Source of the DNA: Ignavibacteria bacterium
GTDB lineage: Bacteria > Bacteroidota > Ignavibacteria > UBA10030 > SZUA-254
Length of the DNA: 64,000 bases
Direction: 5' to 3'
Assembly (NCBI GenBank): GCA_016178595.1
Contig: JACOSY010000016.1
Coordinates: forward strand, 38,151 to 102,150
Below, piece by piece: positions 4,302-63,839 of this stretch (its first letter is position 1; each line of letters begins with the position of its first letter). Position numbers and translations under genes: made by a program. The notes beneath the pieces were generated by a model. That model saw nothing but the letters and a program-made list of their open reading frames with translations, was not told where the DNA came from and made no database searches.

Positions 4302-6362
4302 TCACCAATTCAACACGGGAAAGAGCGACGTGTAATCGTCCGTCCACACCGGCACGGTAATAGTCGTCTGCCGGTCGGGGAAAACTGCTTCTTGAACTGC
4401 TCGCTGCTGAAGCAATGTCGTGTTCAGCGTTAACACGATCCACTCGGACGGAAACCGGCGGATGTCGCGCTCCTGGTTGAAATCGGTCAATACAATCATT
4501 GGAAGCTTTAACTCCTTCGCGACCGCAGCAACCACGGCGTGAAGGTTCACCTGTTTGCTGGAGATGTTGACGAGGATTGCGCCGTCCGGCTTGATGTGCT
4601 TCAGGAAAATTTCGAACGCTTCCCTGGTCAACAAATGCACGGGAGGAGAATCGCTGTTGAATGCATCCAGCACGAGCACGTCGAAATTCTGCGGCGGCTC
4701 CTTCTCCATCGAGAGGCGCGCATCGCCGATGACGATGTCGTTCCGTGCCAGGCAATCGGCAAGATAGGTGAAATGCTTCTCCGCCAACTGCTGCACCTGC
4801 GGGTTGATTTCGTAGAAGCGAAAATAGTCTCCGGGCCTGCCATACGCTGCGAGCGTTCCCACTCCCAGCCCCACCACACCGACACGGTGCGCGCTATCTC
4901 CCGGTAAGCTTGTCAGAACTCGTCCGGCTCCGCCTTTCGCAGTGAAATACGACGTGGGCATACGATGGTACTGCGGGTTGATAAACTGATACCCATGCAG
5001 CGTTTTCCCGTGCCGCATGACAAGGAACTGTCGATCACGATCGTTCTCATTATACGACGTGATCGCGAGCGTACTGAAAAAATTTCGTGCCGTATCCACC
5101 GTGTTATGATAGATAATGCGTGTCTGCTGGTAGAAAAGAATTGCAAAGATTGCCACTCCGGCTGCAAGGCCTGCCCATGCCCAGCGAGGTTTTCCGCGAC
5201 GCAACGGACTCGTCTCATCGACAAAGAACATCAGCAGGACAACACCGCAGCATGCAAGGATCGCGCATTGAAACTCATAATATCCGCTGAACAACACCGG
5301 CGCAAGAAACGTTACGAACATTCCGCCCATAGCGCCGCCAGCTGCAATCGACAAGTAATAGGAGGTAAGATGCGATGGCGGCGGTTTCAGTCGCGCGACC
5401 TCGCCATGACAAATCATGCAGCCGATGAATACAAGGCATGAATAGATTGCAAGCTGCGGCAGAAATGTCAACGTTTCTTCATTGAACATCATCCAGCACA
5501 CGATTGAGATAGCGACAAGGTATGCAATCGCGTATGTCGGGCGCGAGTACCACCGCGGGTGATCGAATGTGAGGACGAATGTGAGAAGATAGATGGCCAG
5601 CGGCAGCACCCAGAGCAACGGCATCGGCACAACTTCCTGGCAGAGCTTATTCGTTGTTGAGAGCAGCAGCACCGATGCGATCGCCGGCAGCGTTATCCAC
5701 AACGCACGATCGAGCAACGGCACAGCGACGACTTCTTGTTTTTCATCGTCCGGCGTCCGGGGACCCGGAAGAACCGAAGCCTTGCGCCAAAGGTAGACAG
5801 CACTCGCGACACACACGACGACGAACACCATCATCCCCCACGACCATACTTCCGCTTGCGCCCGGCGCGCGATGTTCGGCTCGACCACAAAGGGATATGC
5901 GATCAGTGCAAGCAGAGAGCCGACGTTCGATAACGCATAGAGTCGGTACGGAACTGTCGCAGGGGAAAGCATACTCAGCCAGCGCTGAAGCAGCGGACCG
6001 GTGGTCGCAAGAACAAAGTACGGAATGCCGAGCGAAACAAAGAGCAGCGTCAGGATGCGAATCGTCGGGTCGACGTTCGATGTGGGTTTCCATTGATCTC
6101 CGGGAATGATCGGCAAGAGCACGAGTGCGAGAAGAAGAATCAGAACGTGCAGAATAATCTGCTGGCGTGGACGAAGATATCGTGTGATCAGATGACTGTA
6201 GGCATATCCGAACAGAAGAAACGTTTGGAAGAACACGATGCAGGTTGTCCACACCGCTGCACTGCCGCCGAACCACGGCAGGATGTATTTGCTGATGATC
6301 GGCTGAACAAGGAAGAGGAGAAACGCGCTGAGAACAATTGTTATGGAATAGAGGATACGCAT
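4302..6362 (-). CDS. Fused polytopic membrane domain / spermidine-synthase-like aminopropyltransferase
   Basis: The N-terminal half has about 10 TM helices. The C-terminus has a spermidine synthase fold with GVVGLGVGTLA and DVLVLDAFNSD...PDGILVNI motifs. The start was chosen at MRILY (6362) because the upstream ATG at 6383 lies inside a hairpin. Confidence 0.7.
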   Translation of the reverse strand: MRILYSITIVLSAFLLFLVQPIISKYILPWFGGSAAVWTTCIVFFQTFLLFGYAYSHLITRYLRPRQQIILHVLILLLALVLLPIIPGDQWKPTSNVDPTIRILTLLFVSLGIPYFVLATTGPLLQRWLSMLSPATVPYRLYALSNVGSLLALIAYPFVVEPNIARRAQAEVWSWGMMVFVVVCVASAVYLWRKASVLPGPRTPDDEKQEVVAVPLLDRALWITLPAIASVLLLSTTNKLCQEVVPMPLLWVLPLAIYLLTFVLTFDHPRWYSRPTYAIAYLVAISIVCWMMFNEETLTFLPQLAIYSCLVFIGCMICHGEVARLKPPPSHLTSYYLSIAAGGAMGGMFVTFLAPVLFSGYYEFQCAILACCGVVLLMFFVDETSPLRRGKPRWAWAGLAAGVAIFAILFYQQTRIIYHNTVDTARNFFSTLAITSYNENDRDRQFLVMRHGKTLHGYQFINPQYHRMPTSYFTAKGGAGRVLTSLPGDSAHRVGVVGLGVGTLAAYGRPGDYFRFYEINPQVQQLAEKHFTYLADCLARNDIVIGDARLSMEKEPPQNFDVLVLDAFNSDSPPVHLLTREAFEIFLKHIKPDGAILVNISSKQVNLHAVVAAVAKELKLPMIVLTDFNQERDIRRFPSEWIVLTLNTTLLQQRAVQEAVFPDRQTTITVPVWTDDYTSLFPVLNW

Positions 6363-16583: not shown

Positions 16584-17339
16584 TTATTGGTTGGCAAAGA
16601 GTAAACTTGCTTCTTCACGAATTTCGGAGAGAAATTCTTGCACGAACGTGTCTTTCGACGCAAGGATATCGTGTGCATTCCCATCGAAAACGATGCGGCC
16701 ATCACTGACGACGGCGAGCGAGTCGCCGACGGCAAACGCATCGCGCAGAATATGTGTCACGACGATGGAAGTGACCCTGCGTTCATTCTTCAGTTTCAAC
16801 ATCAGCTCGGTCACCGTCTTGGCATTGATCGGATCGAGGCCCGTTGTCGGTTCATCGTAGAGAATGATTTCGGGATGGAAGGCGATCGCTCTCGCAATTG
16901 CGACACGTTTCTTCATCCCTCCGCTAATTTCCTCCGGCAACAGACTGCCGGCATCCGGAAGGTTGACGAACTCAAGACACTCTTGTACGCGCTTGTCGAT
17001 TTGCTCCGGCGTCATGGGGGAATGTTCTTCAAGAAAAAATCCGACGTTCTCCGCAACCGTCAATGAATCGAACAACGCGTTCCCCTGGAAGATCATCGAC
17101 ATGCGCCGGCGAACCGGCATTTGTTCGCGTTCACTCAAGCGGGTAATCTCAATATCGTCGACAAATACCTTGCCGACATCCGGCTTCCACAAACCCAGGA
17201 CAACTTTCAGGAGCGAACTCTTCCCTGCGCCGCTCGGGCCGAGCATGACCTTTGTTTCGCCATCATTCACACGGAAGGATACGTCGTCGAGGATCTTTCG
17301 TTCTTCAAATTCGACTGTTATATTTTCCAAACGAATCAT
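16584..17339 (-). CDS. mlaF: Phospholipid ABC transporter ATP-binding protein MlaF
   Basis: Walker A GPSGAGKSS, the ABC signature LSGGMKKRVAIARA and Walker B ILYDEPTTGLD are present. Confidence 0.85.
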   Translation of the reverse strand: MIRLENITVEFEERKILDDVSFRVNDGETKVMLGPSGAGKSSLLKVVLGLWKPDVGKVFVDDIEITRLSEREQMPVRRRMSMIFQGNALFDSLTVAENVGFFLEEHSPMTPEQIDKRVQECLEFVNLPDAGSLLPEEISGGMKKRVAIARAIAFHPEIILYDEPTTGLDPINAKTVTELMLKLKNERRVTSIVVTHILRDAFAVGDSLAVVSDGRIVFDGNAHDILASKDTFVQEFLSEIREEASLLFANQ

Positions 17340-17384
17340 GATGTTGACTCTTATAATCCTTGTCACGAGGCCGGTTTTTCATTG

Positions 17385-17523
17385 CCACGAGCTTCAGCTC
17401 GTGGATAGCATCTCCAAAAACCTCGAGGGGTTTCAACCTCTAATCAGCCAGCGTTTTTTTGATGGCTAAAGCCCCACTCGCCCTTGACTCTTCCGTCCAC
17501 GACCTAAAGGTCGTGGCAATCGG
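17385..17523. repeat. Family-2 multi-hairpin element (CCACGAGCTTCAGCTCGTGG ... GGGTTTCAACC ... GGCTAAAGCCCC ... CCACGACCTAAAGGTCGTGGCAATCGG)
   Basis: It is the reverse-complement copy of the element at 20903-21050. It is intercistronic between mlaF and mlaE. Confidence 0.6.
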
Positions 17524-17559
17524 ACTGTTCGCTCATCAGGGAATTCCTTCACATCCATT

Positions 17560-18345
17560 CTATAGTATCGACCAGATCACTTTCGTAAAAATGAAATCAT
17601 TGAAGAGCACAACCACCGATGAGACCACGACAGCGTTGACCGCCGCACGTCCTACGCCAATTGTCCCTCCTGTCGTCGCTAATCCGTAATAACAACTTAT
17701 GGTCGAGATGAAGAATGAGAAAACGACCGGCTTGGCAAATCCGACAATCAGGTCTTTTATCTTAAGATCGTAGATTGCCGAGTGCCAGAAAAAACCTTTG
17801 TCGACGTTCAGCCACCAATCGGAAACATACATCCCTCCGACGAGTCCAACGAGATCGGAAACCAGCGTGAGAGGCAGAAACATGACGAGCGCTGCGATAA
17901 GGCGCGGCACGGCGAGTTTCTCGATCGGATCCGTTCCGAATGCCCGCAGCGCGTCGATCTGTTCGCTTACTTGCATGGAGCCTAGCTCAGAGGCGTTCTT
18001 CGCACCGGTGCGCGCCGCAAGGAGCAAGCCGGTGATGACGGGACCGAGCTCGCGGAAGAGCGCAAGCGACGTCGTACGTCCGACAAGGAGCTTCGCGCCG
18101 AACGTCTCGAGTCTGTGCCCCGCCTCGATGGCCATGATGATTCCCATGAACAGACCCGAAAGCGACGCGATCATAAACGCCTGCGCGCCGATGATGTACA
18201 TTTGCTCGAGCGTATCGCGCCGGTAGCGCCACGCGGAGCGCAGCGATCGGACGTTCTCGTAGACGAAGATCGAGTACTCTTGCAGCCGCCAGAGCATGCG
18301 CTTGAACGTTCGGACGGGGGCGATATCGGCAGCGGGCCATGCCAT
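17560..18345 (-). CDS. mlaE: Phospholipid ABC transporter permease MlaE
   Basis: It has a MlaE-type polytopic permease topology and sits adjacent to mlaF and mlaD. Confidence 0.8.
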   Translation of the reverse strand: MAWPAADIAPVRTFKRMLWRLQEYSIFVYENVRSLRSAWRYRRDTLEQMYIIGAQAFMIASLSGLFMGIIMAIEAGHRLETFGAKLLVGRTTSLALFRELGPVITGLLLAARTGAKNASELGSMQVSEQIDALRAFGTDPIEKLAVPRLIAALVMFLPLTLVSDLVGLVGGMYVSDWWLNVDKGFFWHSAIYDLKIKDLIVGFAKPVVFSFFISTISCYYGLATTGGTIGVGRAAVNAVVVSSVVVLFNDFIFTKVIWSIL

Positions 18346-18348
18346 GCA

Positions 18349-19071
18349 CTATTTCGGATTCTCGTGAAGCCACTCTTCCGCCGTCCGGATATCCTGCACA
18401 TGATCGACATCCACGATTTTTGAGAATGGATATCCTTCCAGCGTGTAGCCGTTCTCCACGAGATGACTCAGGAAATTCCGCAGGCGCTCGATGTTACGAT
18501 TGAGGACGACATCGATTTCGTTAAAAATTCTTGGAGAGAAAACGTACATGCCGCCGGTGACCCACTCTTCCTTTTCCCCGCGCAGGGTGACATTTGTTTT
18601 TTTGGCAAAACGGAGAATCCGTTTCTGCGCGTCCATCTCTACATAGAGCGGGTTCTCATCATCGATAAAATTCGTGATTGCAAGAATTCCATCAAGCGAG
18701 GCTTTCCCTTGTGCGTACTGAAGATACCGGCAGAATTCTTCTTCATGAAATATCGAATCGACGGTTGAGAGAAGAAACTGTTCATCGCGCAGATGTGTAG
18801 CAAGAGCGAAGAGACTATGCATCGAGCTTGGCGTCGTCCTGACAACGAAGTCGATCGTGATCGGGAAATGTTTCTGTTCGATGAAGCGTTTCACCTCGAG
18901 AGAATATTCATTGACGATGCAGGCGATTTCGGTGATGCCGTTCCGGATGAACGTCGCGATCAATCGTTCGATGAGCGGAATGCCATTGACAGGGACGAGC
19001 GGCTTCGGCAGAGCGATGCCTTCCGATTTGAGCCGGCTTCCTTCCCCCGCTGCGATGATGGCTGCTTTCAT
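18349..19071 (-). CDS. Nucleotidyltransferase (NTP-transferase fold; inositol-phosphate cytidylyltransferase-like)
   Basis: The N-terminal AAGEGSRL...PKPLVPV motif is the sugar-phosphate nucleotidyltransferase G-x-G-x-R-L signature. Confidence 0.7.
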   Translation of the reverse strand: MKAAIIAAGEGSRLKSEGIALPKPLVPVNGIPLIERLIATFIRNGITEIACIVNEYSLEVKRFIEQKHFPITIDFVVRTTPSSMHSLFALATHLRDEQFLLSTVDSIFHEEEFCRYLQYAQGKASLDGILAITNFIDDENPLYVEMDAQKRILRFAKKTNVTLRGEKEEWVTGGMYVFSPRIFNEIDVVLNRNIERLRNFLSHLVENGYTLEGYPFSKIVDVDHVQDIRTAEEWLHENPK

Positions 19072-19091
19072 ATGTATTAATGTTGCGTAAG

Positions 19092-19192
19092 ACCCTCACC
19101 CCGTCCCGACTTCGTCGTGACGCCCCTCTCCCATTGGGAGAGGGGACGGTCTACGACTCTACCGAGTCGAAGACTCGTAGAAGGGTGAGGGT
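19092..19192. repeat. Palindromic element, family 1, with perfect 10-bp terminal inverted repeats (ACCCTCACCC ... GGGTGAGGGT)
   Basis: Its internal palindromes are CCCCTCTCCCATTGGGAGAGGGG and GTCTACGACTCT..AGACTCGTAGA. Confidence 0.65.
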
Positions 19193-19501
19193 CGAAAAAT
19201 GTGTGAAAAGATACCAAGAATTTGACAGATTTCCAAGAATACATACGGCAACGGTCTTGACAGACGAAAGAAATTTGAGTATGTTTCCATTGCCTCGGGG
19301 GAGTACGACGCTGAGGGCTACTGCATATCATGATCAACATGTCTTACTCCATATCTGCCGCGAGTGTTGTGTGGATTTGCAAAAGCTTTGAATTGATAGG
19401 AGGAGTTCGACGTAAAGAAATAAAGATGCAATGCGGATGTATATTGTTATACGCAACGCCGCCCGACGCATGATTGTCCTACATATTCATGACCATCGCT
19501 T

Positions 19502-20296
19502 ATGACAGAAGACGAAACGCCTGAACAGTTCTATGGTCTCAAGTACATAGAACTCAAGGATGAAGAGAGCCTTGAAAAGATTTTCTTCGTTGGAAATGTG
19601 TGGGAGGTTGAAGCTTTTTTCAAAACAGCTGACAATTCCATCGAAATCATCCGAAGCACCAATAGCGTTCGACTTGCGGTTTTAGAAACGTGGCTGCTTC
19701 TTGACTATTCTATTCGGGAAATTTTGCTCTCGGTTCTTGGTCTAAGTCGAGTTAACCATCCGGATTACGAGCTAAAGCAATTACTTCTGCCGTGGAGTTT
19801 GTGCGATTGTATTGACCTGATGGCAAAGATGCAAGAGGTGAACGCGAAATTGCCCGAGTATCCCGACACTCATTCTGTGAAATTGCCTGTTCAGTTCATC
19901 TTCTACTTGCGCAAAGAGAATCCTAACTTCTTAAATAAGTTTCTTGAAATCGAAAAGGAATATTATCTAAAATATCACCCGGCGCTTTCGAAGGAATCTG
20001 GCAATATTCTAACCGGTAGTGTGCATGCGAGAGCAAGTAAGAAGCATTTATATTCTCACGAGTACATGCGAATATTGCCTGACATGCTAGCTTTCATCTC
20101 ACGGATTGACGAGGCGTGGACAAGGAAAATAAGAAAACTCCATAGCGCTAGGAACGTCGCCGCACATTCCCATGACGAAAAATTGATCGCCGACAAAATG
20201 GGCTATTCTGGGGACAAGGTGATCAATCACATTAGGAATGAATGTCTTTCAAGCATCGAACAACTTTTAGGCATAAGATCGAAGAATACCTCCTGA
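19502..20296 (+). CDS. Hypothetical protein, possible HEPN-domain (Rx4HxH) protein
   Basis: The C-terminal RNVAAHSHD fits the Rx4-6H HEPN motif. It is encoded in a lower-GC islet. Confidence 0.35.
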   Translation: MTEDETPEQFYGLKYIELKDEESLEKIFFVGNVWEVEAFFKTADNSIEIIRSTNSVRLAVLETWLLLDYSIREILLSVLGLSRVNHPDYELKQLLLPWSLCDCIDLMAKMQEVNAKLPEYPDTHSVKLPVQFIFYLRKENPNFLNKFLEIEKEYYLKYHPALSKESGNILTGSVHARASKKHLYSHEYMRILPDMLAFISRIDEAWTRKIRKLHSARNVAAHSHDEKLIADKMGYSGDKVINHIRNECLSSIEQLLGIRSKNTS

Positions 20297-20369
20297 CGCA
20301 CCTTTGAATACAATTACATTTACCTTTTCGATTCTGTAAACTTTAATTTCCACTATTAACAAAAAGCGT

Positions 20370-20657
20370 ATGATAATTCTACAGATCGAACATAAAGTCC
20401 CAAACTTCGATGCCTGGAAAAAAGCGTTTGATAATGACCCTATCAACCGCAACAAATCCGGCGTTCGCCGTTACCGTATCTTCCGGCCAATAGATGATCC
20501 GAATTATGTTATTATCGATCTTGAATTTAATAACGTACATGATGCGGAGTCCATCCTCGCCGCGTTACGCAAGTTATGGGTTCACGTGGAGGGAAAAGTT
20601 ATAGTGAACCCGCAAAGCAGGATCCTGGAGACAGTGGAGACCATGGAATATAAATGA
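20370..20657 (+). CDS. Hypothetical small protein (95 aa)
   Basis: The ORF is in the low-GC islet, and no confident family was recognised. Confidence 0.35.
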   Translation: MIILQIEHKVPNFDAWKKAFDNDPINRNKSGVRRYRIFRPIDDPNYVIIDLEFNNVHDAESILAALRKLWVHVEGKVIVNPQSRILETVETMEYK

Positions 20658-20902
20658 AATTGAGAGTTCTGAAAAATGGTAGGACAGGCATTCTTGCCTG
20701 TCAGAAACATTATTATTCAACTTAATTTCGACAGACAGGAATGTCTGTCCCACCGAAATTGATAATAATTCAGAAGTCTCAAATTAGGAGTAAGCCTCGG
20801 CAACACGGTACATAGGTAGTGTCTCACTTTAAATCAGTGAATTCGAATTTTAGATAACTACTAAGCAGTATTCTAATAGGCTAGTGAATAACTCTCTGCG
20901 GT

Positions 20903-21050
20903 GCAAATTGCCACGACCTTCAGGTCGTGGTTATCGGTATCCCAAAAAATTCGACGGGCTTTAGCCCGCACAAACGAATCCCTTGGATGGAATGGGTTGA
21001 AACCCATCACGATTTTTCTAGGATTGTTCTCCACGAGCTGAAGCTCGTGG
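20903..21050. repeat. Family-2 multi-hairpin element (opposite orientation to the 17385-17523 copy)
   Basis: It contains CCACGACCTTCAGGTCGTGG, GGGCTTTAGCCC, GGGTTGAAACCC and CCACGAGCTGAAGCTCGTGG. Confidence 0.6.
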
Positions 21051-21096
21051 CTATGAGTTCTCTTTTTCAACAGCTTGATGGAGATAGCCAACCATC

Positions 21097-22275
21097 ATGA
21101 AAACACTTTTATTTGCCATCGGCATCATCTTCCTGTTCGCAGTCGAGGTTCTGAAGGTCTATCTTATCATGCCCTTTCCCGGCAGCCAGGAATCGAGTGC
21201 AGTGCAGCTTGCCTACTTCCTGCACACCAACGCATGGTGGCTGAGGATCGTCGGGCTGGCGCTCGTTCTTCCGTTCGTCCTGCACGTCTATCGCACGAAG
21301 CGTCTCTTCGGCAAAATAGCAATCACGCTCCCGCTGCTGCTCTATGCGCTGGTGTTCTACGCCGGCAACTTCCGGTTCCTCGCCGACAAGATTTTTATTA
21401 TACCCCGCACGAAACAAATGCTGCCCGCAGCCGCGAACAAAGTACCGCCGGAGAAACTCGTTATCGGCGTGGAGTACAAAGGCGAAGCCCGCGCGTATCC
21501 CATCGAAGTAATCGGGTATCATCACCAGGTCCTCGATACGATCGCCGGCGATCCGCTGCTCATCACCTACTGCACCGTCTGCCGGACGGGAAGAGTGTAC
21601 AGCCCCGTCGTGAACGGCACGGCAGAGCGCTTCCGGCTCGTGGGTATGGACCGGTTCAACGCGATGCTCGAAGATGCGACCACCGGAAGCTGGTGGCAGC
21701 AGGCGACCGGTGAAGCTGTCGCGGGAAAACTTGCCGGCCGGCAATTGACCGACGTTCCTTCCATGCAGATGACGCTCGGAACATGGACCGAGCATTATCC
21801 TGCAACACGCATCCTTCAGCCCGACCCGGAGTTTCGCAACCGGTACGAGCACCTGCAAGGTTTCGATGAGGGCACGATCGAAAGCAGTCTGGAGAAACGG
21901 GATTCCGCTTCGTGGCGGATGAAGTCGTGGGTCGTCGGCGTGGTGTCTCCGCAGCGAGCGGTGGCTTTCGATTGGAATATATTGGCGCAAAAAAAAATTC
22001 TCATCGATCGCGACATTATGGTAATGCTGGAAAAAGACGGCGCCTCGTTTCGCGCGTTCAGCACCGTCGTCGACGGTACACCGCAGGTCTTCGAGTGGAA
22101 CTCCGATCAATCTCTGCTCACCGAGACATCCACCGGATGTACGTGGAATGTCGCAGGAGTTTGTATCGAGGGCACGCACACCGGCAAATACTTGACGCAA
22201 CTGCAAGCCTCGCAGGAGTTCTGGCATTCCTGGCAAACGTTTCATTCCGGAACGTCGCTGTACCCGGCAGAGTAG
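21097..22275 (+). CDS. DUF3179-like membrane-anchored protein
   Basis: An N-terminal TM segment is followed by a conserved GEARAYP...YCTVC block typical of DUF3179. The full-length antisense ORF is judged spurious. Confidence 0.6.
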   Translation: MKTLLFAIGIIFLFAVEVLKVYLIMPFPGSQESSAVQLAYFLHTNAWWLRIVGLALVLPFVLHVYRTKRLFGKIAITLPLLLYALVFYAGNFRFLADKIFIIPRTKQMLPAAANKVPPEKLVIGVEYKGEARAYPIEVIGYHHQVLDTIAGDPLLITYCTVCRTGRVYSPVVNGTAERFRLVGMDRFNAMLEDATTGSWWQQATGEAVAGKLAGRQLTDVPSMQMTLGTWTEHYPATRILQPDPEFRNRYEHLQGFDEGTIESSLEKRDSASWRMKSWVVGVVSPQRAVAFDWNILAQKKILIDRDIMVMLEKDGASFRAFSTVVDGTPQVFEWNSDQSLLTETSTGCTWNVAGVCIEGTHTGKYLTQLQASQEFWHSWQTFHSGTSLYPAE

Positions 22276-63755: not shown

Positions 63756-63839
63756 GCCCGGATGGCGGAATTGGCAGACGCGCTAGCTTCAGGAGCTAGT
63801 GGCCGCAAGGTCGTACAGGTTCAAGTCCTGCTCCGGGCA
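63756..63839 (+). tRNA. tRNA-Leu (anticodon CAG)
   Basis: The acceptor stem GCCCGGA pairs with TCCGGGC. The anticodon stem CTAGC/GCTAG carries the loop TTCAGGA. A long variable arm and a TTCAAGT T-loop are present. CCA is not encoded. Confidence 0.75.

Follow-up and report, generated by a model that had tools for sequence, protein, structure and literature searches.

Classical bacterial miniature inverted-repeat transposable elements (MITEs), among them Correia/NEMIS, ERIC, RUP, and BOX, are derived from DDE-type elements and carry target-site duplications. In insertion sequences (IS) of the IS608 type, the top strand carries the hairpins of both ends together with their guide sequences, and the two ends differ. 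Repetitive extragenic palindromic (REP) sequences, with the bacterial interspersed mosaic elements (BIMEs) and REPINs that they form and the REP-associated tyrosine transposase (RAYT, or TnpA-REP) that accompanies them, are systems of Proteobacteria (Nunvar 2010; Bertels and Rainey 2011; Ton-Hoang 2012; Messing 2012). Here, two short four-hairpin elements, named copy A and copy B, were characterized in a 64-kb stretch of DNA from an Ignavibacteria bacterium (64,000 nucleotides [nt] of contig JACOSY010000016.1; referred to as the window, and the reference for all coordinates unless a locus number is given). Copies A and B are very probably non-autonomous, REP/REPIN/MITE-like mobile elements of a Y1 HUH transposase family, each composed of two inverted half-units placed head to head. 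This reading is based on the architecture of the elements, on a partner transposase gene that lies between the half-units at other loci, and on the empty state of the mlaE-mlaF junction in relatives. Of main interest are a repeat partner for a transposase subclass that had been surveyed as having none and a recognition hairpin conserved across phyla.

The four-hairpin element and its family

Copy A (17380-17521) is a gene-less four-hairpin doublet with the order cATTG-H1-h2-h3-H4-CAATc (H, terminal hairpins; h, inner hairpins; none of the hairpin features is assigned a strand), as determined from the sequence, the alignment to copy B, and a covariance model. Its terminal hairpins are CCACGAGC-TTCA-GCTCGTGG (17385-17404), directly preceded by the conserved ATTG, and CCACGACC-TAAA-GGTCGTGG (17497-17516), directly followed by CAAT. 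The inner hairpins are GGT-TTCA-ACC (17429-17438), which aligns with the inner-hairpin column of 25 doublets, and GGC-TAAA-GCC (17464-17473). Copy B (20906-21055), located 41 nt 5' of a DUF3179 gene, has the order AATTG-H1-h2-h3-H4-CTATg; its terminal hairpins CCACGACC-TTCA-GGTCGTGG (20911-20930, identified from sequence and motif count) and CCACGAGC-TGAA-GCTCGTGG (21031-21050, with CTAT directly after) enclose the inner hairpins CGGGC-TTTA-GCCCG (20955-20968) and ATGGGT-TGAA-ACCCAT (20992-21007). An earlier interpretation of the letters without database searches (the sequence-only reading) had reported two four-hairpin copies of ~145 bp at these places. Both are present there, with true ends that lie 5 nt farther out, at flanks of the AATTG/CAATc type.

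The pattern CCACGA-N8-TCGTGG occurs four times in the window (at 17385, 17497, 20911, and 21031), compared with a mean of 0.19 in shuffled sequences, and none of 100 shuffles reached four. The covariance model scored copy A at 101.8 bits on the plus strand and 94.1 bits on the minus strand and copy B at 101.8 and 97.4 bits, respectively; with filters off, nothing else in the 64 kb scored above 10.2 bits, and no further copies were found. The stems of the two copies are identical, and the hairpins match at 61 of 67 positions (∼91%), compared with 29 of 73 positions (∼40%) in the spacers. No closer relatives of the window spacers were present among the 217 loci fetched for comparison (designated by L numbers below). 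Alignment of the copies as reverse complements (113/157 identical) is only modestly better than direct alignment (102/161), because each element is a quasi-palindrome. The earlier description of A and B as reverse complements of each other therefore holds by a small margin, with near-equal covariance model scores on both strands. The compensatory changes offered in the same description (CTTCAG versus CTAAAG and GCTGAAGC versus GCTTCAGC) turned out not to be compensatory: they are differences between loops or one loop read from its two strands. Within one element, the terminal hairpins differ by a compensated change, GAGC/GCTC versus GACC/GGTC.

A scan of one genome per species with the pattern CCACGASCTNNAGSTCGTGG matched at least 120 stretches, against a chance expectation of ∼35 for the whole genome collection by our own estimate. 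About 80 of these stretches are from the Fibrobacteres-Chlorobi-Bacteroidetes (FCB) group (taxa here and below are taken from record names), and matches in Actinobacteria and similar genomes whose loops are rich in G+C resemble chance occurrences. Among the matches listed, 97 have A/T-type loops. These are from Ignavibacteria (∼35), Bacteroidota (∼34), Acidobacteriota (5), Calditrichia (4), Zixibacteria (2), Chlorobi (2), Kapaibacteria, Marinimicrobia, and Cloacimonadota (one each), and a few others. Several metagenome-assembled genomes (MAGs) hold two to four separate loci each, and the hairpin is present in MAGs labeled Ignavibacterium album and Melioribacter roseus (L060 and L102). The sequence-only reading had made the case for a structured element depend on additional copies, a transcript, and stem covariation among relatives; the same architecture was found in many FCB-group genomes, and the covariation is described below.

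In the family design, the left half consists of AATWG, CCACGASC-TTYA-GSTCGTGG, ∼20 to 25 nt of spacer, and (G)GGC-TTYA-GCC(C). After a center of ∼15 to 50 nt, the right half consists of (G)GGC-TRAA-GCC(C), ∼20 to 25 nt of spacer, CCACGASC-TRAA-GSTCGTGG, and CWATT. Thirty-five complete gene-less doublets were collected, with terminal hairpins 90 to 120 nt apart and the inner pair present in nearly all. In these doublets, the left loops read TTYA and the right loops TRAA; the element therefore represents two inverted copies of one half-unit. Covariance model R1 detected ∼45 full doublets in 93 loci, with near-equal scores per strand, as well as many half-elements. The outer flank, AATWG...CWATT, is conserved (among 144 left hairpins, T is at −3 in 138 and G is at −1 in 134); the inner flanks are unconserved. 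Distant members carry compensated stems (CCCCGACC/GGTCGGGG, CCACGGCC/GGCCGTGG, CCACGCCC/GGGCGTGG, CCACGACG/CGTCGTGG, and CCCCGGTC/GACCGGGG).

Several of these properties are those of REP/REPIN elements: short palindromic extragenic units are repeated (in the window, as two intergenic copies in 64 kb), they occur as inverted doublets plus half-elements, the hairpins covary while the spacers are free, and the hairpin is immediately preceded, on its 5' side, by a conserved short motif. Here, however, that motif is AAT(T/A)G and not GTAG, in the same position and, by analogy, maybe with the same role. The family also differs from REP/REPIN elements in having two different hairpins per arm, and thus four per doublet, and in having FCB-group hosts. 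Finally, its hairpin sequence is nearly identical across phyla, whereas REP sequences are species or genus specific.

In the literature, the hairpin sequence gave chance primer matches only. An 18-nt palindrome of Caldithrix abyssi (AACCGTTnnAACGGTT) was considered as the same repeat and is a different motif; the CGTC-/GTAG-tagged repeats of Di Nocera 2013 were also rejected, as the hairpin sequence is absent from them. A phage origin was likewise rejected, with only 10 hairpin matches in 2.9 million viral contigs and no close Y1 relative in phage or plasmid records.

Two side observations concern the hairpin itself. Tandem partial duplications, each comprising half of a terminal hairpin plus its flank, lie beside intact hairpins (L010, 72-120; L096, 3880-3935 and 4060-4120; L051, ∼4350-4370; for example, GGTCGTGGcaattaagtcgtggcaattaagtcg) and may be traces of slippage at the hairpin or of an abortive cleavage-rejoining reaction. 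In the window, 22 nt past copy A in the operon sense, CCTCGTGACAAGG (17345-17365) resembles GCTCGTGGCAATG and is possibly a duplication of the same kind. The exact hairpin CCACGACCTTTAGGTCGTGG was also found in DPANN MAG contigs (Nanoarchaeota and Woesearchaeota; L042, 1098-1117; L077, 3476-3495). The setting there differs (gtgcttgctaaaa-hairpin-agcacgttgag), with flanks that lengthen the stem, and these hairpins could represent bin contamination, transfer, or an unrelated structure.

Next, the structure maintained by selection was examined in 25 aligned doublets (alignment A3). The four local hairpins were paired in 94.6% of cells, a percentage inflated by the choice of terminal hairpins with intact stems, and both sides changed in 16 of 26 pairs. 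The covariation score of the local hairpins was 0.308, compared with 0.094 in shuffles (none of 500 reached the observed score) and with at most 0.05 for slid partners. Because the terminal hairpins of A3 had been chosen for intact stems, a G/C stem position left free by the search pattern was used as well; this position and the inner hairpins are unbiased. The free position was complementary in 235 hairpins and not in 14, and both inner pairs were Watson-Crick in 249 of 270 hairpins, with 136 expected under independence. The ViennaRNA minimum-free-energy folds, with z scores of −4.2 to −7.5, pair H1 with H4 and h2 with h3. As the conserved structure, this single long hairpin was rejected, since its score of 0.114 compares with 0.094 for shuffles and 13 of the 25 doublets are unpaired at variable columns. 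These results showed that selection acts on the local hairpins and on the 5' AATWG. Selection on secondary structure, as the sequence-only reading had proposed, was thus borne out by stem covariation among relatives.

The Y1 HUH transposase gene between the half-units

At three loci (L089, L045, and L005), an open reading frame (ORF) of 147 to 152 amino acids (aa) lies between the half-units and matches Pfam Y1_Tnp (E = 1e-23 to 1e-27); further copies of the gene were found by tblastn (L096 and L046). The 3' end of the Y1 ORF runs into the inner hairpin GGCTAAAGCC, which encodes the C-terminal peptide ...SLAKA... (L089, 1400-1430; L045, 5877-5900), and the gene therefore fills the exact space between the inner hairpins. 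The window copies are this gene-bearing element minus its gene. The association was also assessed in a protein-driven metagenome scan that was independent of the hairpin and comprised 80 loci. Within 200 nt of the Y1 gene, the hairpin was present upstream in 63 of 75 loci (84%), downstream in 65 of 77 (84%), and on both sides in 53 of 72, compared with 1 of 89 control windows located ∼1 kb away. A small HUH/Y1 transposase gene bordered on both sides by the repeat units, one inverted relative to the other, is likewise a feature of REP/REPIN systems.

The Y1 protein is ∼148 aa in length, with the motifs DH(I/V)H, WQ, and YIxNQEEHH. In alignment A2, residues D52, H53, H55, W93, Q94, Y113, Q117, E118, E119, and H121 are invariant, as are K124, F126, E129, Y130, F133, and K135 of a conserved C-terminal tail. 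The family is widespread in the FCB group and, at 90% identity, forms at least 7,887 protein clusters. Comparison of these motifs, made without a tree, with Table 1 of Quentin 2018 (PMC6006769) places the protein, as judged by sequence, in TnpA-Y1 subclass 1.2. Shared with this subclass are the length of ∼148 aa, the DH[IV]H, WQ, and Y---Q--HH motifs, the conserved C-terminal tail, Bacteroidetes hosts, and low copy number. The survey lists no associated repeats for subclass 1.2 and gives a mean copy number of 1.7 and an intragenomic identity of 36%; its text supplements do not name the relevant species. Unlike the subclass as surveyed (PMC6006769), the present family has the hairpin on a given side of 84% of its genes and has dispersed gene-less doublets. 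The enzyme also sets the family apart from REP/REPIN systems: it belongs to class 1, subclass 1.2 (IS200 class), and not to the class 2 TnpA-REP enzymes, and its Tyr motif is YIxNQEEHH, whereas YxxxNP-type motifs are tabulated for most class 2 subclasses (PMC6006769). A group designated "IS200 Group 3, RAYT-like," with abundant flanking 16-mers and no gene duplicates, was described by Bertels 2017 (PMC5581495) and may be this Y1 family.

The class of the enzyme raises a first alternative, which we consider unlikely but which deserves serious attention: that the copies are ordinary MITE/PATE-like deletion derivatives of an active, multicopy IS200-family IS, not of a domesticated RAYT/REPIN-type system, and persist only during an IS invasion. 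The Y1 proteins pass the NCBIfam transpos_IS200 model (58 to 67 bits; cut-off, 55) and fail the NCBIfam model for REP-associated tyrosine transposases (NF047646; 23 to 26 bits; cut-off, 80). Their solved relatives are ISDra2 TnpA (4e-11) and IS608 TnpA (3e-8); the HUH and Tyr motifs line up, and the Protein Data Bank matches are to the IS200 class only. The family shares with IS200/IS605 elements and with the palindrome-associated transposable elements (PATEs) of haloarchaea and cyanobacteria a homologous transposase, subterminal hairpins, and non-autonomous palindromic derivatives. In addition, Y1 genes that are 92 to 94% identical in DNA occur between unrelated flanks (L142/L151 and L154/L155/L161/L183), a distribution that looks IS-like; gene pairs with at least 98% identity represent one locus recovered from different samples. 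This distribution suggests that the gene-bearing element has moved, or has been transferred, fairly recently.

Other features of the family are not those of such an IS. Its flanking hairpins are inverted (TTYA left and TRAA right), so that one unit forms both ends, in inverted orientation, and AATWG lies 5' of the hairpin on opposite strands, unlike in IS200/IS605 elements. Also unlike those elements, the Y1 gene has no TnpB gene beside it in the loci read (L089, L045, and L005). The mean copy number and intragenomic identity given above for subclass 1.2 (PMC6006769) argue against an active multicopy IS, as do the near constancy of the hairpin sequence across phyla and the result that no relatives with at least 60% identity were found on 72,556 plasmids or in 50,697 phages. 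As to a single-copy, vertically inherited transposase gene, the indirect evidence points in both directions, with this absence on one side and the 92 to 94% identical genes between unrelated flanks on the other.

If the window copies are non-autonomous elements of this family, as we favor, their movement probably occurs in trans, through the action of a Y1 transposase on single-stranded DNA hairpins. By homology with IS608 and ISDra2 TnpA and E. coli TnpA-REP, a transposase supplied from elsewhere in the genome would bind the hairpins in single-stranded DNA, for example, in the lagging-strand template, and AATWG, 5' of each terminal hairpin, would be the counterpart of the guide sequence or of the GTAG tetranucleotide. 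The enzyme would then cut and rejoin single strands, and the unit would move without target duplication. Recognition would need only the hairpins and AATWG, which would stay near-invariant as the spacers drift. Copy A would have landed at the mlaE-mlaF junction, which is contiguous in relatives, and copy B in the 5' region of the DUF3179 gene. If the hairpins affect these transcripts at all, for example, by hindering RNA decay, that effect would be secondary, and the element can be explained without a role in RNA.

The earlier suggestion of a MITE can be retained in part. The elements are gene-less, with inverted-repeat ends, an empty site in four relatives, and a cognate transposase elsewhere, and they resemble classical MITEs in their small size, intergenic or intra-operon location, and strong fold. 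The partner enzyme, however, is Y1 HUH and not DDE, which makes REP/REPIN elements or derivatives of an IS200-family element the closer analogy, and inspection, by eye only, revealed no target duplication or flanking direct repeats at copies A and B. For movement of the IS200/IS605 type, with insertion 3' of a specific tetra- or pentanucleotide, such duplication is not expected; at the one available pair of empty and filled sites, 80 nt of additional sequence obscures the junctions.

The mlaE-mlaF junction and alternative explanations

Copy A lies between mlaE (17560-18345, minus strand; Pfam MlaE, E = 3.6e-71), the operon gene upstream of it, and the ABC ATPase gene mlaF (16584-17339, minus strand; Pfam ABC_tran), the operon gene downstream. 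The order of this minus-strand operon is NTP-transferase > mlaE > [copy A] > mlaF > mlaD > LPG-synthase-like. The mlaF ORF was called from a GTG at 17366; alignment with relatives puts the start at the ATG at 17339-17337, in agreement with a 251-aa gene call in L001. Copy B is followed by the DUF3179 gene (21097-22275, plus strand; Pfam DUF3179, E = 1.2e-50). The gene calls thus agree with the placement of copy A between mlaE and mlaF and of copy B upstream of DUF3179 in the sequence-only reading.

In four relatives (L214 to L217; MlaE 81 to 91% identical), the gap between mlaE and mlaF is 0 to 3 nt, with TAG abutting ATG (gene tables and junction alignment A4). In the window, the mlaE stop and the mlaF start are separated by an insert of 220 nt (17340-17559, minus strand), comprising ∼39 nt, copy A, and ∼41 nt. 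The junction is therefore polymorphic for the presence or absence of the insert. Three other loci (L001 to L003) are identical to the window, with one mismatch in 20,786 nt in L001, and are uninformative with respect to within-species variation. The limits of the mobile unit are indicated by L079, which has two 100% identical copies between unrelated flanks. Identity extends from TTTCATWG to CTATGAA, and the mobile unit therefore ends no more than 8 nt outside the terminal hairpins. It follows that the nucleotides by which the mlaE-mlaF insert exceeds copy A lie outside the canonical unit. A mobile unit with ∼40 nt per side was considered and rejected: the flanks of copies A and B are unrelated, also as reverse complements, and shuffles matched equally well in 26 to 86% of trials.

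Several points weigh against mobility as the explanation. The insert is 220 nt and the element 142 nt, and the additional ∼39 and ∼41 nt have no counterpart in the relatives, in the flanks of copy B, or in the other fetched data. Hence, either the canonical unit was not cleanly transposed in this event, or the insertion proceeded in more than one step. Copies A and B are only ∼72% identical, and with two copies in 64 kb, the genome of the window shows no sign of recent amplification. The Y1 gene is absent from the 64-kb window (tblastn), no Y1 gene of the window's own MAG was located among the best 120 of the family's protein clusters, and a resident mobilizing enzyme is thus unproven. The inflated pairing percentage of alignment A3, noted above, also belongs among these points.

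A second alternative is that the host keeps the hairpins for its own use, as with REP sequences and BIMEs in E. coli; they might slow the 3'-5' decay of RNA, adjust expression within operons as weak terminators (here, for example, mlaE relative to mlaF), or bind a nucleoid or topoisomerase protein, and mobility would then be historical. We regard this as improbable as the main explanation, although host use is possible as a secondary layer. It would account for hairpins that are conserved, with randomized spacers, between two old copies in one genome. The positions of copy A within an operon and of copy B in a 5' leader would suit such a role, and the hairpins are equally stable from either strand, so that orientation in RNA would be immaterial. 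However, selection at the level of the element, in which only intact copies are copied, gives the same pattern, and no T run lies directly 3' of the terminal hairpins in the window copies. An AATWG outside the stem and a strict loop orientation are features of protein-DNA recognition and not of RNA stability. In addition, the mlaE-mlaF site is empty in the four relatives, and hence no conserved host function is served at that place.

Rfam, which the sequence-only reading had recommended, was searched with the whole window (gathering score) and with 17000-21400 (E values up to 10), and the element was unmatched. A structured noncoding RNA with four stem-loops, either the small RNA of that reading or a cis-regulatory leader, would fit the strong predicted folds (z, −4.2 to −7.5), the stem covariation, and the shared orientation of both copies relative to transcription of the flanking gene (a 50% coincidence with two copies), but it is scarcely credible given the absence of an Rfam match, the reverse-complement symmetry with half-unit loops that are complementary (TTYA/TRAA) and not identical, the similar scores on both strands, the local pairing, the spacers that vary freely in sequence and length, the unrelated genomic contexts, the same hairpins flanking a transposase gene, and the presence/absence polymorphism at the mlaE-mlaF site.

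Neighboring features and significance

Three other features of the window were recorded. At 20660-20785, 120 nt upstream of copy B, is a different palindromic doublet of ∼125 nt, with the outer inverted repeat ttgagagttctgaa...ttcagaagtctcaa and two 8-bp hairpins, GACAGGCA-TTCT-TGCCTGTC and GACAGACA-GGAA-TGTCTGTC; a compensated G:C-to-A:T change distinguishes the two stems. Its predicted DNA fold is −31.2 kcal/mol (z = −8.1), and the design is that of the CCACGA element with another sequence. This doublet may be the "first repeat family" of the sequence-only reading or a second REPIN-like family. A match to the Rfam antizyme frameshift element (19118-19159, plus strand), in or beside an 87-aa ORF, is below threshold (28.7 bits versus 40; E = 0.003) and most likely reflects chance. 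The only Rfam match at the gathering score in the window is a tRNA gene (63756-63839, plus strand).

The association of the four-hairpin unit with the Y1 gene may have a wider meaning. We tentatively propose that FCB-group bacteria hold their own REPIN-RAYT-type partnership, in which a subclass 1.2 HUH transposase is paired with a four-hairpin unit that has near-invariant recognition hairpins. Such a partnership would represent either an independent, second domestication of an IS200-like enzyme or a missing intermediate between IS200 insertion sequences and the RAYTs of Proteobacteria; this proposal is held with less confidence than the mobile nature of copies A and B.

For genome annotation, the results mean that strongly folding intergenic features in MAGs of Ignavibacteria and Bacteroidota can be annotated as mobile DNA and not as riboswitches or small RNAs. 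An orphan subclass of Y1 HUH enzymes, with its thousands of protein clusters, gains a concrete proposed substrate, AATWG plus the CCACGASC hairpin. The insert at the normally contiguous mlaE-mlaF junction provides a natural test of the effect of hairpin clusters on operon expression, and experiments would be feasible if cultured strains of Ignavibacterium album or Melioribacter roseus carry the hairpin. If the partnership is stable and vertically inherited, REP/REPIN biology would reach beyond the Proteobacteria, which would bear on the origin of RAYTs from IS200.

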